A stretch of DNA of 64,000 bases, taken from assembly GCA_027023025.1 (NCBI GenBank), contig JALVXB010000001.1:3645-67644 (forward strand), written 5' to 3'. The position numbers and the translations under genes are program-made. Each line of letters begins with the position of its first letter. The first letter of the stretch is position 1. This DNA is from Caldisericaceae bacterium (GTDB taxonomy: Bacteria > Caldisericota > Caldisericia > Caldisericales > Caldisericaceae). Below the pieces are notes generated by a model that worked only from the letters and a program-made list of their open reading frames with translations, made no database searches and had not been told where the DNA came from. This document shows positions 14,628 to 19,838 of the stretch, one piece after another.

Positions 14628-17219
14628 TTACGGAACGGTAAAACTGTAGAGGATTTTTGAGAATCCTGCCCACGCCTTGCCGAAGTCTTCAGGGGTTGCG
14701 TCAAACTCAAGCGTGTAAATAATGTCGCCTTTTTTGAGAAAGAAAAGCGCAACTTTTAAGTCCATAGGATTGCCCTTTTCGTCTTCACCTTTTCCGCTTA
14801 CGACTAGTTTGTAAAAGTTTTGCCCGTTTATCTCAACGCTCTTTTCTTCCAGCACCTTTTCGTTGTCAAGAAATTGCGTTTTTATGTATTTCAAAAATTC
14901 CTCTTCGTCGATGCCTTCCTTTTTAAGGTCGTCGTGATAGATAAAAACTGATGCAACATATCCGTCTTTAAAGCCAGGGCTGTCTATCCTTATGTCCGTA
15001 TCTTCGTCGGGATTTTCTTCCAGCGTCCAGCCCTCTGGATAGTAAAACGCATATTGGTTATTTTTAAACTTTTTAACGGGGGTGATCTTTTTCAAAACCG
15101 CAGAGATAGTTTTATTGCCCTGCAGAGAGATTTGCTCCGCATAAGTTTCGTATCCCTCCTTTTTTAACTCCACGGTAAACTGCCCAAAAGAAAGCGTAAA
15201 GTCGTGCGGCGTTTTAAACCCCGTGTCCCTCCCGTTTATAAAAATCTCTGCACCCTGCGGGGTGGAATTCACTTTAAGCACATAGGTTGCTTTCTGCAAA
15301 CTCACATCCACGCTGGCCGTTTTGCCAGTGTTTACTTCCACTTTTACAGTTGCGCTTTTGTATCCTGCTTTCTTCAGCGTGATTGTGTGCACTCCGGTAG
15401 GCACGCCCTTAATCATATTTGGAGTTTTTACGCCCTTGTCGCGCCCGTCGACGAAAATCTCCGCACCGCTTGGATGCGAAACTATGCTGAGGTAACCTCC
15501 CAGCGCCTTCAGTTCAAAGTTTACGCTGACCGTTCCGCCGTTTTTCAGGTTTACCGTTTTGGTCGCACTTTCGTACCCTGCCTTTTTTACGGTCACTTCG
15601 TATGTGCCTTTCTGCGTTTCCTTTACTTTGTTCGGAGTTTTCAGCCCCGTGTCCCTCCCGTTTATGAAAATCTCTGCACCCTGCGGAGTGGAGTTTACGC
15701 TTATTACCATTGCCTTTTTAACGACGATTCCGCTGCCCGTGTTTTCGTTTGTGCTACCGCTTTGCGCGCTTTCTCCGCCTGTTGCACTGCCGCTGGTACC
15801 GTTAGAACCTCCGTTTGTTCCTATCTGCGAGGTCTGGGAAGTTCCGTTTCCACGGATTGCCACGCTGTTTCTGCGGTGTGCAGAAGCAAAAACTATAGTT
15901 CCAATAATTGCAACGAGGAGCGCCGCAATTATGCCGAGCACGACTTTGCTGCGGAACAAACTCTGGACGCTTACCTCGGGCAAACTTACCCTGGGAATTT
16001 TTCCGAAAGCGCTCTTTTTTGTTTTTCCGACACCTTCTATTATTTGTGTGCCTCCTTTTACTTCAGCGGGCACTTCCGGTGCACTTTCCTTTGCAATAGA
16101 CTTCTCGTCTTTTAACTTGCTGGCCTTTACATCTGGAGTTGCAGCTTTTCTCTTTGCAGCCGAAGCAGTAGCACCGTTGCCCAGGACGACAGTTTCACCG
16201 GGCTCATCGCTTTTTGCATTTTCCTTTGCTGCTCCAGATTCGCCCGAAGGAGCCACACTCGAAGAAGCCTTACCTTCACTTAAAACGACCGTCCCACTCT
16301 TTTCTGCGCCTTTAGCCTGCGGAACTTCCTCCTTTTTCAAAATTACGGTTTCGCCCTTTTCTACTTTGTGCTCCTTTTGCGGAATTGCTTTGCCCGCAGA
16401 AATTTCTGACAGGTCTTTCAGCAGCTCTTCTGGGTTCTGGTAGCGCTTTTTGGGATCTTTCTCGAGCAATTTAAAAATAACTTTCTTTAACTTTTCAGGC
16501 ACATCGCTTAAATTGATGGGCGGCACTTCTTTTGTAAGGTGCATACTGATAACGGACCACGGCGTTTCCCCGTCAAATGGCACTTTTCCCGTAAGCATCT
16601 GGTACATCGTGATGCCCAGCGCATACAGGTCGCTCCGAATGTCTGCTTTTTGTCCTTTTGCCTGCTCAGGCGACATATAAAAAGGCGTGCCCAGAATGGA
16701 GTCTGCAGCGGTAAGCCCTTCGCCTCCGCTGAGTTTTGCAATACCAAAGTCCATTACCTTTACTTTTCCGTTTGCAGTAAGCATAATGTTCTGCGGCTTG
16801 ATGTCGCGGTGCGCGATAAGCCCTTTGCTGCGGGCATAACCCAGAGCCTTTGCAACTTCCGATGCAATGCGCACCACTTCCTCGTACGGGAGCGAGCCTT
16901 TTTCCTCTAAAATCTGTGAAAGCGTTTTGCCCTGCACGAACTCCATTACGATAAAGTATGTTTCACCGTCTTTTCCAAAGTCGCGCACCCGTGCAATGTT
17001 TCCGTGCTTCATTCTTATTGCAATTTCTGCCTCTTTCAAAAAGCGCTTTACGAAGTTTTCGTTTTCTGCGTATTCTGAGTGCAGAACTTTAATTGCAACG
17101 ATTTCGTTCGTCTTGAGGTCGCGCGCAAGGTAAACGGTTGCCATACCCCCGCTTCCCACTTTGTCGTATATTTTGTACTTGCCGCTTATTACTTTGCCTA
17201 TGTACTTAATGTGTACCAC
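14628..17219 (-). CDS. Hanks-type Ser/Thr protein kinase with TM helix, PEGA-domain ectodomain repeats and C-terminal PsbP/DcrB-like domain
   Basis: Kinase motifs are GSGGMATVY, VAIKVL, HRDIKPQN, DFGIAK and SPEQ. The TM helix is VVLGIIAALLVAIIGTIVFA. At least three PEGA repeats are present (STPQGAEIFINGRDTG.KTP...KKAGYE). The start codon is GTG. Confidence 0.9.
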   Translation of the reverse strand: MVHIKYIGKVISGKYKIYDKVGSGGMATVYLARDLKTNEIVAIKVLHSEYAENENFVKRFLKEAEIAIRMKHGNIARVRDFGKDGETYFIVMEFVQGKTLSQILEEKGSLPYEEVVRIASEVAKALGYARSKGLIAHRDIKPQNIMLTANGKVKVMDFGIAKLSGGEGLTAADSILGTPFYMSPEQAKGQKADIRSDLYALGITMYQMLTGKVPFDGETPWSVISMHLTKEVPPINLSDVPEKLKKVIFKLLEKDPKKRYQNPEELLKDLSEISAGKAIPQKEHKVEKGETVILKKEEVPQAKGAEKSGTVVLSEGKASSSVAPSGESGAAKENAKSDEPGETVVLGNGATASAAKRKAATPDVKASKLKDEKSIAKESAPEVPAEVKGGTQIIEGVGKTKKSAFGKIPRVSLPEVSVQSLFRSKVVLGIIAALLVAIIGTIVFASAHRRNSVAIRGNGTSQTSQIGTNGGSNGTSGSATGGESAQSGSTNENTGSGIVVKKAMVISVNSTPQGAEIFINGRDTGLKTPNKVKETQKGTYEVTVKKAGYESATKTVNLKNGGTVSVNFELKALGGYLSIVSHPSGAEIFVDGRDKGVKTPNMIKGVPTGVHTITLKKAGYKSATVKVEVNTGKTASVDVSLQKATYVLKVNSTPQGAEIFINGRDTGFKTPHDFTLSFGQFTVELKKEGYETYAEQISLQGNKTISAVLKKITPVKKFKNNQYAFYYPEGWTLEENPDEDTDIRIDSPGFKDGYVASVFIYHDDLKKEGIDEEEFLKYIKTQFLDNEKVLEEKSVEINGQNFYKLVVSGKGEDEKGNPMDLKVALFFLKKGDIIYTLEFDATPEDFGKAWAGFSKILYSFTVP

Positions 17220-17245: not shown

Positions 17246-18166
17246 TTAAAATGCCTTTTTTACGAACTTCAGGTAGTAAAGCGCTAAAAGCGCAAAAGCC
17301 AGCACGAGCACGAGTGTAATGTACATAAACTTCCTGCGTGACTTTTTCCCGCCGTCCTGCAAATTGCCCCGTTCCTTACGCATAGGAACGCTTTCTGCAA
17401 TAATCACTGTGATGTTGTCCTCTCCCCCATTTCTATTTGCACGGTCAATCAGCGCCCGCACCTTTTCCTCAGTTGAGAGCTTACTTTTCAGTACGCTCTC
17501 CATCGTTTTTTCACTGACCATATTGTAGAGCCCGTCGCTACAGAGGAGCACTTTGTTTTTTTCGTTAAGCGCAACTTCCGGATAGGTTTCAACTTCTACG
17601 CCCGCCTTTACCCCCAGGGCGCGCGTCAGCACATTTTTCTGCGTGCTCTCCCTTGCCTCTTTTTCACTGATCATCCCATTTTCCAACTGGTACGCAACGA
17701 GCGTGTGGTCGTGCGTAACTTGCGAAAGTTTACCGTCTTTTAACAGATAAACTCTACTGTCCCCCACATTGCCCGCAGACAAAACGCCGTTTTTTATAAA
17801 AGTAGCCGCTGCAGTCGTTCCCATTTTGCCGCTCAGATTGTGCGCTTCTGCGTACTGAAAAATTTTTTCGTTTGCTTTCTTCAGCACGCTAACGATGAAT
17901 GCCTCAGGGTTTGGAAAATCTGTCTGCTTTTCGAACACTTCTTTTGCAGTTTGTGCAGCAATGGTGCTTGCAACTTCCCCTTTTTCCATGCCCCCCATCC
18001 CGTCAAAAACGGCAAGGAAAACTGTTCCTCCTTTTTTGAGCACTACGAAGTCGTCTTCGTTGTTTGTCCTCTTTCTCCCTACATCTGTAAGTGCAGAGCA
18101 GGAGAGCCCCTCAATCTCTCCTGCATCCTCCTTTTTTGCAAGTTTCAGCGTTTTTGCCTGCTTCAT
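17246..18166 (-). CDS. PP2C-family Ser/Thr phosphatase with C-terminal TM anchor
   Basis: Motifs are RTNNEDDF, VFDGMGG, LLCSDGL and GGEDNITV. The C-terminal helix is FMYITLVLVLAFALLALYYL. Confidence 0.9.
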   Translation of the reverse strand: MKQAKTLKLAKKEDAGEIEGLSCSALTDVGRKRTNNEDDFVVLKKGGTVFLAVFDGMGGMEKGEVASTIAAQTAKEVFEKQTDFPNPEAFIVSVLKKANEKIFQYAEAHNLSGKMGTTAAATFIKNGVLSAGNVGDSRVYLLKDGKLSQVTHDHTLVAYQLENGMISEKEARESTQKNVLTRALGVKAGVEVETYPEVALNEKNKVLLCSDGLYNMVSEKTMESVLKSKLSTEEKVRALIDRANRNGGEDNITVIIAESVPMRKERGNLQDGGKKSRRKFMYITLVLVLAFALLALYYLKFVKKAF

Positions 18167-18173
18167 TACCCGT

Positions 18174-19838
18174 TTATGCCTTCTTGAATGTCATCTGCAC
18201 GCGTGCAAGTGTCACGGTGTCTCCGTCTTTTAACTCTTCACGCGTAATTTTATTACCGTTTACATAGGTGCCGTTCGTGCTTGCAAGGTCGTAAAGCACA
18301 AACTTGCCGTTTTCAAACTTTACCTTTGCGTGTTCCGACGAAACTGAAGGATCGTCCAAAACTATGTCGTTGTCCGCACTTCTTCCTATGTTCGTCGTGT
18401 TCCCTAACTTGAAGCTCTTTCCGTCACTGTTTCTTATAAGGTATGCAAGAGGCACGCTCTTTCCACCTAAAATTACCGTTTCGCCAGATGACGGAGCCTG
18501 TTTTTCGCGCACAGGTGCACCTTTTCTGGGCGTGCTCTTCCCGGGCGCGTTTGCTCTGCCTTTTTTGCTCATTAAAAGGAATGCGGCAAGCACCGCGATT
18601 ACTGCAATAAGCCCTAAAATTATCCAAAGCATTGGAACCTCCTTTTTGTCGTGTCCCTGGTCAATTTCGTAGCGGCACTTCTGAATGAACTGCTGGATGT
18701 ACGGATGGCCCGGATACATCTGCTCGACGATACCAAACTCCTTCAACGCCTTTGAGTAGTACCCGTTCCACATAAGTTCAAGCGCCTTTTTGTAGTGCTC
18801 GTCAAGAGAGCCCTGATGCGGAGTAACTCCCACTTCCTTCAAAAATTCCTTTGCAATGTTAATTGGGACGAGGAAGTTAAACCCCTCAATCGTCTGCCCG
18901 GTATTGTAGTCAATCGAGCCAAAGGTAGATATACCAATTACTTCGCCATTTTCGTTAAGAGCAGGTCCCCCTGAATTCCCGTGATAAATTGCAGCATCCG
19001 TCTGGATGACGCTCCAACCTCCTGGCATCTGCTTTATTGCACTGACGATACCTGAAGTTACAGTAGGAAGCGTAGCGCTTTCTCCCTTGAGGTACGGATG
19101 GAATGTGGCAACGCCCGGATAGCCGATGCAGTAGATTTTCTCGCCAACGACCGCCTTTGAGGAATCTCCCAGCGCAATCGTGGGCAGCTCTTCGTTCGTT
19201 TCAACTTTCAGGATTGCAACATCCTTTCCCGTGCCAACGCCCGACGGGTCGCCCACCTTTTTGATCTCACACTGCAAACCTTTCTCTGCAACGGCAATGC
19301 CCGGAATGGACTTTCCCTGAACTGCAAAAACGGTTTCCGTCACATTTGTAATCTGTGCGTGGTTCAGCAAAAACATAAAGAAGCCGTTCATAAACGCTTT
19401 TGCCTGCGCCTGCGTGATAGAGCCGTCTCCAAGTTGGTTTTCCGTCTCTTTCATCACGACCGTTTTGAGCAGCATAAACTTTTTGAACTGGTCAGTAAAC
19501 TTTACGACATGTGCGTTCGTCACGATGTAGCCGTCTGGCGTAACGATGAAACCGCTTCCTGATACGCCGGTTTTTGCGTGCTCTTTCCAGGTGCCGCCCT
19601 GTTTGTCCACTGTGAAGTGGAAGTTGTCGTCGTAGCTTGCAGACGGTGCAATCACATCGCCTTCAATAATCGTTTCTATGTACACCACTGCAGGCTCTGA
19701 CAACGCAATAATTTTGTCAGGAGACAGCGCCTTTCCGTTTTCCGCGCGGGCAACCTGTCCGTAGGGCAGTGCCGCAAGCGCAAAAAACAGTACGGCAATT
19801 AAAAGCACGACGCCTTTTTTAATGTTCGTTCTCTTCAT
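18174..19838 (-). CDS. secreted trypsin-like (S1/DegP-type) serine protease - TM helix - cytoplasmic FHA domain fusion
   Basis: Signal peptide is MKRTNIKKGVVLLIAVLFFALAALPYGQVARA. The catalytic triad context is TNAHVV, DVAILKV and GNSGGP. The TM helix is MLWIILGLIAVIAVLAAFLLM. The C-terminal FHA is IGRSADNDIVLDDPSVSSEHAKVKFENGKFVLYDLASTNGTYVNG. RBS AAAGGAGG. Confidence 0.85.
   Translation of the reverse strand: MKRTNIKKGVVLLIAVLFFALAALPYGQVARAENGKALSPDKIIALSEPAVVYIETIIEGDVIAPSASYDDNFHFTVDKQGGTWKEHAKTGVSGSGFIVTPDGYIVTNAHVVKFTDQFKKFMLLKTVVMKETENQLGDGSITQAQAKAFMNGFFMFLLNHAQITNVTETVFAVQGKSIPGIAVAEKGLQCEIKKVGDPSGVGTGKDVAILKVETNEELPTIALGDSSKAVVGEKIYCIGYPGVATFHPYLKGESATLPTVTSGIVSAIKQMPGGWSVIQTDAAIYHGNSGGPALNENGEVIGISTFGSIDYNTGQTIEGFNFLVPINIAKEFLKEVGVTPHQGSLDEHYKKALELMWNGYYSKALKEFGIVEQMYPGHPYIQQFIQKCRYEIDQGHDKKEVPMLWIILGLIAVIAVLAAFLLMSKKGRANAPGKSTPRKGAPVREKQAPSSGETVILGGKSVPLAYLIRNSDGKSFKLGNTTNIGRSADNDIVLDDPSVSSEHAKVKFENGKFVLYDLASTNGTYVNGNKITREELKDGDTVTLARVQMTFKKA

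Follow-up and report, generated by a model that had tools for sequence, protein, structure and literature searches.

In a stretch of 64,000 nucleotides from a Caldisericaceae bacterium (GenBank assembly GCA_027023025.1, contig JALVXB010000001.1, positions 3,645 to 67,644 of the forward strand; called the window below), we identified a short threonine motif that occurs four times in the juxtamembrane linker of a Hanks-type Ser/Thr kinase and once in the cytoplasmic linker of a membrane protease carrying a forkhead-associated (FHA) domain. The two proteins and a PP2C phosphatase are encoded by three minus-strand genes arranged head to tail in the order protease-FHA, PP2C, kinase. The motifs are probably docking sites in disordered linkers, whose threonines would be phosphorylated by the kinase, dephosphorylated by the phosphatase, and bound as phosphothreonine (pThr) by the FHA domain.

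The threonine motifs and their linkers

The juxtamembrane linker of the kinase (residues 277–419; 15963..16391, on the minus strand like all features of the operon) is rich in K, A, E, G and S and is predicted to be disordered. It contains the sequences KGETVILK, with T291 in GETVIL (motif 1, 16338..16355, codon 16347-16349), SGTVVLSE, with T310 in GTVVL (motif 2, 16281..16295, codon 16290-16292), PGETVVLG, with T343 in GETVVL (motif 3, 16182..16199, codon 16191-16193), and GGTQIIEG, with T391 in GTQII (motif 4, 16038..16052, codon 16047-16049). The fifth site, SGETVILGG, with T454 in GETVIL (18468..18485, codon 18477-18479), is in the cytoplasmic linker of the protease-FHA protein (residues 424–464, 18447..18569), which is likewise predicted to be disordered. 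An earlier reading of the window (the original prediction) had placed all five threonines at these codons, and translation of the minus strand bears this out. The residue three positions after the threonine (+3) is L, L, L and I for T291, T310, T343 and T391, respectively, and L457 for T454. The original prediction described the same heptapeptide in both proteins; the string that they share identically is the hexapeptide GETVIL. The distance from T454 to the FHA domain, given there as about 20 residues, is 11 residues to the first FHA strand (465–469 in an AlphaFold2 model) and 29 to the Pfam FHA match (483–544).

The motifs are concentrated in these two proteins. The pattern GETV[VI]L occurs three times in the genome (2314 open reading frames (ORFs), 608 k residues), each time in the kinase or the FHA protein, and five of the ten genome-wide occurrences of the looser pattern GE?T[VQ][VI][LI] are found in the same pair. 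Shuffling of the kinase linker gave an expectation of 0.26 for T-x-[VIL]-[LIVM], compared with four observed, and none of 20000 shuffles reached four (P below 5e-5). Of 11 orthologs, 8 had P at or below 1e-3 in the same test.

Repetition at the DNA level was considered as a cause and rejected. Tandem Repeats Finder found no tandem repeat in the DNA, and the sole direct repeat is a pair of 24-nucleotide segments, 71% identical, that underlies motifs 1 and 2 (16339-16362 and 16282-16305, encoding E-K-G-E-T-V-I-L and E-K-S-G-T-V-V-L). Since no DNA repeat lies beneath the motifs, the repetition is maintained at the level of the protein. The 24-nucleotide pair may go back to an early internal duplication from which the array arose.

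Neither linker is modelled as a fold by AlphaFold2. Residues 277–425 of the kinase have a predicted local distance difference test score (pLDDT) of 23–29 and no secondary structure (shallow alignment of 11 sequences), and residues 425–460 of the FHA protein score below 50 (shallow alignment of 22 sequences), which indicates short linear motifs and not parts of folds. We also considered whether the motif might extend the FHA fold by a further beta-strand. This was rejected on the low scores for residues 425–460 in the model from the 22-sequence alignment, in which strands start at 465. Similar strings elsewhere, such as NITVII in the PP2C protein and other occurrences of T-V-I-I, are within folded domains or transmembrane (TM) helices and are unrelated to the motifs.

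Conservation and ancestry of the motif

The conservation expected by the original prediction is found in the orthologous operons. All 11 orthologous kinases hold between one and five copies of the motif, and 11 orthologs of the protease-FHA protein keep it at a fixed spacing from the FHA domain. The FHA-protein orthologs (60–99% identity) retain G/N-E-T-[VIM]-I-[LM], and the remainder of the linker following the TM helix is variable. The linkers of the kinase orthologs (39–99% identity) range from 67 to 156 residues and can barely be aligned, yet each contains its one to five copies of T-[VQAMI]-[VIL]-[LIVM]. The threonine of motif 1 is invariant in all 11 kinases, that of motif 3 is nearly invariant (at least 90%), and the TQII of motif 4 is kept in the four closest orthologs. 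Among the four closest kinase sequences the motif columns are 94% identical, compared with 51% for the other linker columns. In total, 36 motifs occur in 986 linker residues of the orthologs as opposed to five in 5486 linker residues of the other kinases recovered by the homology search, an approximately 40-fold difference in density, and the array is specific to this type of operon.

The first motif position is threonine in 36 cases and serine in one across the orthologs, in linkers that hold serine and threonine equally. This fits recognition by FHA domains, which strictly select pThr. The residue preceding the threonine in the kinase linkers is variable (E, K or G). On the contigs of seven of the 11 orthologous kinases (the window included) we found a protease-FHA partner, the gene order protease-FHA, PP2C, kinase is repeated elsewhere (contigs L015 and L016), and the PP2C gene sits between the FHA and kinase genes in every related operon. 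One kinase from an orthologous operon lacks a PEGA match, its ectodomain being a different one, yet keeps the linker motifs.

The genes for the kinase and the FHA domain are gained and lost together. The genome studied here (1.66 Mb, 99.9% complete) encodes exactly one Hanks kinase, as judged by Pkinase matches, and exactly one FHA domain, both in this operon. We checked their co-occurrence in 11 genomes. Both G010 and G024 encode a single kinase and a single FHA domain; G011, G027 and G033 encode neither. The protease ortholog in G033 (L035, G033:C39 3204-4508; 66% identical) continues for only a few residues beyond the TM helix and lacks both the linker and the FHA domain. The G033 genome (95% complete) contains no Hanks kinase or FHA domain, and neither a PP2C nor a kinase gene lies beside the protease gene. 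Given this all-or-none gene content, the cytoplasmic FHA tail, the PP2C and the kinase behave as one module, and the protease can exist without its signalling tail.

The fusion of the protease to the FHA domain is sporadic: of 26 genomes in the family, 3 have it, this one included, and a fourth, G033, has the protease alone. It is absent from the genomes searched elsewhere in the phylum. Other Caldisericota have the same FHA/PP2C/kinase operon with an FHA protein of approximately 300 residues (L029 1293-2192; L031 5439-6365; L030, L032-L034). These proteins consist of a lipoprotein-like ectodomain of approximately 120 residues that has no Pfam match, a TM helix, a linker, and an FHA domain that is 46–55% identical. 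Each has E-T-[VIF]-[IV] ahead of the FHA fold, with the spacing unchanged and with D, E, S or A at +3, and the E-T pair is invariant in all 15 Caldisericota FHA proteins of this operon type. The original prediction took leucine or isoleucine at +3 to be the rule; this is true of the protease-FHA clade but not of its relatives, and the universal core is E-T-phi-[IV] (phi, hydrophobic residue). The FHA-proximal site is the ancestral, indispensable and invariant element, and the most deeply conserved, because it is kept even in operons whose kinase linkers have no motifs. The T-V-I-L array of the kinase is an elaboration specific to the protease-FHA clade. Many of the approximately 300-residue FHA proteins also have a second threonine motif upstream in the linker (S-T-M-M-D, E-T-F-V-S-E or S-T-I-I-S-E).

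The residue at +3 changes together with a position in the FHA domain two residues before its conserved serine, which we call Ser-2. Ser-2 is serine or alanine in all nine protease-FHA proteins with L or M at +3, and lysine in all six FHA proteins of other clades with D, E, S or A at +3. In FHA1 of Rad53 the residue equivalent to Ser-2, Arg83, selects aspartate at pT+3 (PMC4037201). That +3 tracks Ser-2 is expected if the FHA domain reads the motif.

A threonine ahead of the fold may be a more general property of FHA domains. A comparison of residues 441–554 with 1.84 billion representative proteins gave, in its top 150 matches, the 291 FHA domains that we examined. T-x-phi-phi shows a sharp peak 31–35 residues before the conserved G-R of the FHA domain, with 53 occurrences compared with roughly 10–30 in most other five-residue bins, and T454 is at position -31 on this scale. 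Unrelated FHA families of the phylum also have a threonine motif before the domain, for example T-R-I-I, T-R-V-M, T-K-V-I or T-T-I-V. Within this broad sample, alanine at Ser-2 is associated with a hydrophobic +3 (12/16 compared with 18/62; Fisher p = 0.0012, a value that ignores shared ancestry), which is suggestive. Pairing of a basic Ser-2 with an acidic +3 is not significant in the same sample (2/8 compared with 12/90, p = 0.32).

Together, these observations raise the tentative possibility, which as a whole we consider rather unlikely, that a T-x-phi-phi phospho-acceptor held at a fixed distance, approximately 10–14 residues before the first strand, is common to many bacterial FHA domains, with its +3 co-varying with Ser-2. 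It would drive head-to-tail self-association of FHA domains, toward which the short spacing points by disfavoring binding in cis, and here, with the kinase linker, clustering at the membrane that switches the extracytoplasmic protease. If this is true, phosphorylation-dependent clustering would let cytoplasmic signalling turn an extracytoplasmic protease on or off, a form of inside-out control.

Several features of the relatives were seen alongside. Distant proteins that also join a protease, a TM helix and an FHA domain (P0074, P0079, P0081 and approximately ten more; 34–39% identical, from other phyla) have instead a linker element P-x-V-[IL]-D-A approximately 45 residues before the FHA G-R, and this element does not always contain a threonine. 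Many Caldisericia kinases (P0132-P0161; L030 2770-5475; L031 2072-4600) have a PEGA-like domain that is cytoplasmic, between the kinase domain and the TM helix, and is followed by N-Q-T-[IVMF]-[IVM]-[GN] repeats. PEGA domains are normally extracytoplasmic, and this placement is unusual. Tandem kinase domains occur as single ORFs of 600–1000 residues with two Pkinase matches (G080:C17, G079:C65, G082:C2, G080:C31, G079:C26), and contig C31 of G080 has three such genes in a row. In G009 the kinase adjacent to the FHA gene (G009:C1:269002-269742; L032) matches Pkinase only across three stop codons, one TAG and two TAA, and may be a pseudogene. The FHA protein of G009 is intact and has the motif E-T-V-I-E.

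The operon and the role of the motifs

The kinase gene (14628..17219; ORF call) encodes a protein of 863 residues with Pfam matches to Pkinase (1.2e-55) and to three PEGA domains (8.5e-51). The protein consists of a cytoplasmic Hanks domain (residues 15–264, 16428..17177, from the Pfam match and catalytic motifs), a linker of approximately 145 residues, one TM helix (residues 425–447, 15879..15947, from hydropathy, with an AlphaFold2 helix at 425–447) and, outside the cell, the three PEGA domains and a PsbP-like domain. The signatures GSGGMATV (22), VAIK (41), HRDIKPQN (137), DFG (157) and SPE (183) are intact, and the activation segment has threonines in GLTAAD and GTP. The catalytic signature residues of an active RD Hanks-type Ser/Thr kinase are thus all present.

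More than 20 PADLOC models of the anti-phage kinase PD-T4-6 match the kinase (14631-17219), with E-values down to 1e-105. Most of these matches, the best included, cover only the catalytic domain (residues 7–319); a few extend into the linker and TM region (to approximately 540), and none spans the whole ectodomain. We rejected a defence function, as the matches are to generic kinase, PP2C and protease domains and the operon is a conserved signalling operon with no defence-island context. The PD-T4-6 models will flag any Hanks kinase.

The PP2C gene (17246..18166) encodes 306 residues with a match to PP2C_2 (5.7e-19) and a C-terminal TM anchor (residues 278–303, hydropathy), and its product is the presumed eraser of the phosphorylation marks. 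The protease-FHA gene (18174..19838) encodes 554 residues with matches to Trypsin_2 (1.3e-26) and FHA (1.2e-22), arranged as a signal peptide, an extracytoplasmic trypsin-like protease, a helical segment, a TM helix, the cytoplasmic linker of approximately 40 residues, and the FHA domain. From hydropathy, the kinase, the PP2C and the FHA protein are each single-pass membrane proteins with their kinase, phosphatase and FHA parts in the cytoplasm. The Pfam match of the FHA domain (PF00498, residues 483–544) scores 80.6 bits against a cut-off of 20.7, and AlphaFold2 gives a beta-sandwich at residues 465–553 (18180..18446) with pLDDT of 83–92. The pThr-binding residues R486, S500, H503 and N522 are all present. 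Together with G485, G523 and T524 they are invariant in 22 aligned protease-FHA proteins, as G-R, S-x-x-H and N-G-T. The closest relatives of this domain with solved structures are GarA and OdhI (E about 1e-13).

In the mechanism that we favor, the PEGA/PsbP-like ectodomain would sense something outside the cell and the kinase would autophosphorylate up to four juxtamembrane threonines. The membrane-anchored protease would use these phosphothreonines as a multivalent landing pad for its FHA domain. Next, the kinase would phosphorylate T454, which belongs to the invariant E-T pair and lies 11 residues ahead of the FHA fold, and pT454 could be bound by the FHA domain of another protease molecule, leading either to self-association or to release from, or competition with, the kinase. 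The neighboring PP2C would remove the marks. In this way the location or oligomeric state of the extracytoplasmic protease would come under inside-out control. The original prediction had offered T454 as either an intramolecular competitor or a site phosphorylated in trans. The termini of FHA domains lie opposite the pThr-binding loops and only 6–7 residues separate +3 from the first strand, so that the competitor looks sterically strained and binding in trans is more likely, as judged from general structural knowledge and this spacing.

Phosphorylation of the linkers, binding by the FHA domain and any effect on the protease are what we infer. The autophosphorylation and docking idea of the original prediction is favored by the disorder of the linkers, the conservation of the motifs, the use of threonine, the co-inheritance of the genes, the co-variation of +3 with Ser-2, and the mycobacterial precedents. 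It needs revision on the +3 rule and on the intramolecular competitor, as described above, and in that the ancestral and invariant element is the FHA-proximal site and not the kinase array.

A number of points weigh against docking. Linker motifs are absent from the kinases of the G005, G006 and G007 operons, in which a cytoplasmic PEGA domain forms the juxtamembrane region, and the array is therefore not essential to the pairing of kinase and FHA domain. In the G080 and G082 operons the kinase linkers carry Q-T-[MIF]-I-G repeats, and the glycine at +3 in the kinase motifs of this third clade is fitted by no simple rule. The co-variation of +3 within the Caldisericota rests on essentially one evolutionary split. 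The phosphosites and the docking are predicted ones, both here and in the orthologs. Finally, the substrate preference of the kinase by itself predicts much of the same conservation.

This last point can be extended to a full alternative, in which the motifs are simply the preferred substrate sequence of the kinase, phosphorylation acts electrostatically or conformationally on activity, localisation or partner choice (a role already proposed for the juxtamembrane domain of StkP), and the FHA domain binds elsewhere, for example at the activation loop. In Mycobacterium tuberculosis the preferences of writers and readers overlap, since six kinases favor hydrophobic residues at both pT+3 and pT+5, and Rv1827 and Rv0020c have FHA domains that select a hydrophobic +3 (PMC3138270). 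In Streptococcus pneumoniae, the juxtamembrane phosphothreonines of StkP act in an organism that has no FHA domain (PMC12077195). The variable residue before the kinase-linker threonine is also as expected of loose substrate sites, and the three related operons without kinase-linker motifs agree with this explanation. However, it does not account for an identical hexapeptide adjoining the FHA domain with a +3 that changes together with Ser-2, for the near-exclusive use of threonine when Hanks kinases usually accept serine as well, or for the strict co-inheritance of kinase and FHA domain, and we consider it unlikely.

We think it quite unlikely that T454 is a switch of the GarA/OdhI type, in which pT454 would fold into its own FHA pocket and shut off binding to the kinase linker. 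The invariant E-T pair and its spacing do suggest a geometric relation to the domain, and GarA and OdhI carry an N-terminal E-T-T-S phospho-motif before the FHA domain (PMC12321487). However, the few residues available between +3 and the first strand compare with about 30 in GarA, and AlphaFold2 leaves the T454 segment undocked, in a model that lacks phosphate. A role independent of phosphorylation, with hydrophobic, beta-prone motifs zipping the linkers together or binding another partner and threonine serving for beta-propensity, is very unlikely. The motif does consist of beta-branched residues, and most of the leucines and isoleucines of the kinase linker fall within motifs, but valine, isoleucine or serine would serve beta-propensity equally and the threonine is invariant. 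Additionally, AlphaFold2 predicts no strand or packing, and the motif is found only in genomes with the kinase, the PP2C and the FHA domain. Chance recurrence in low-complexity sequence could appeal to the biased composition of the linker; it is refuted by the shuffle tests, the genome-wide counts, the conservation in orthologs and the excess in density, and its probability is negligible.

Comparison with known phosphothreonine systems

The arrangement resembles that of PknB and FhaA in M. tuberculosis in having a membrane Hanks kinase, a disordered juxtamembrane linker, threonine docking sites (predicted ones here), and FHA and PP2C genes in the neighborhood. The phosphorylated juxtamembrane domain of PknB binds FhaA (Rv0020c) (Roumestand et al. 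2011, as cited in PMC12077195), and the PknB linker phosphopeptide has a leucine three residues after both terminal threonines (PMC4322841). Unlike that pair, the system described here has a regular, near-identical motif in one to five copies, a single-pass FHA protein with an extracytoplasmic protease, and a single kinase with a single FHA domain, and its phosphosites and docking are predicted.

Rv1747 and PknF of M. tuberculosis are similar in having an acceptor threonine that closely precedes an FHA domain and has a hydrophobic +3, and a neighboring kinase, encoded here two genes downstream of the FHA gene. Rv1747 self-associates in trans through its linker sites. It differs in being an ATP-binding cassette transporter whose polypeptide contains two FHA domains together with two sites; the protein described here has a single FHA domain and a single proximal site, its output domain is an extracytoplasmic protease, and the multivalency is on the kinase. 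The sites in the disordered linker of Rv1747, Thr-150 and Thr-208 (also numbered T152 and T210), are written by PknF and read by the FHA domains (PMC3138270, PMC8339232).

GarA and OdhI have the closest FHA sequences of solved structure, and the invariant E453-T454 pair ahead of the FHA domain is a further likeness. GarA, however, is small and soluble with approximately 30 residues between motif and fold, compared with 11 residues in a 554-residue membrane protein, and no metabolic enzyme targets are implied here. [quoted passage not shown] Chk2 differs in being a eukaryotic checkpoint kinase with the FHA domain on the kinase itself. In the Agrobacterium type VI secretion system (PMC3953482), a Hanks kinase and a PP2C likewise control recruitment of an FHA protein, Fha, to pThr on the cytoplasmic segment of a membrane protein, TssL. 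That system has a single site on a secretion component and a soluble FHA protein, and is not known to have a repeated motif or a protease.

Bacteria usually have numerous and promiscuous kinases and FHA readers, which makes their Ser/Thr kinase networks difficult to decipher. A genome with a single kinase, a single PP2C, a single FHA domain and a sharp motif would make a clean minimal system in which to follow the co-evolution of writer and reader preferences. It might likewise reveal the function of multivalent juxtamembrane phosphosites and a way for phosphorylation in the cytoplasm to control a protease across the membrane, and the presence of a threonine motif at a fixed position before many FHA domains suggests that a general rule may be extractable. 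The principle itself is already known from the systems above; the attraction of this case lies in the setting of one kinase, one phosphatase and one FHA domain, the unusually regular repeated motif, and the placement of the FHA domain on a membrane protease.

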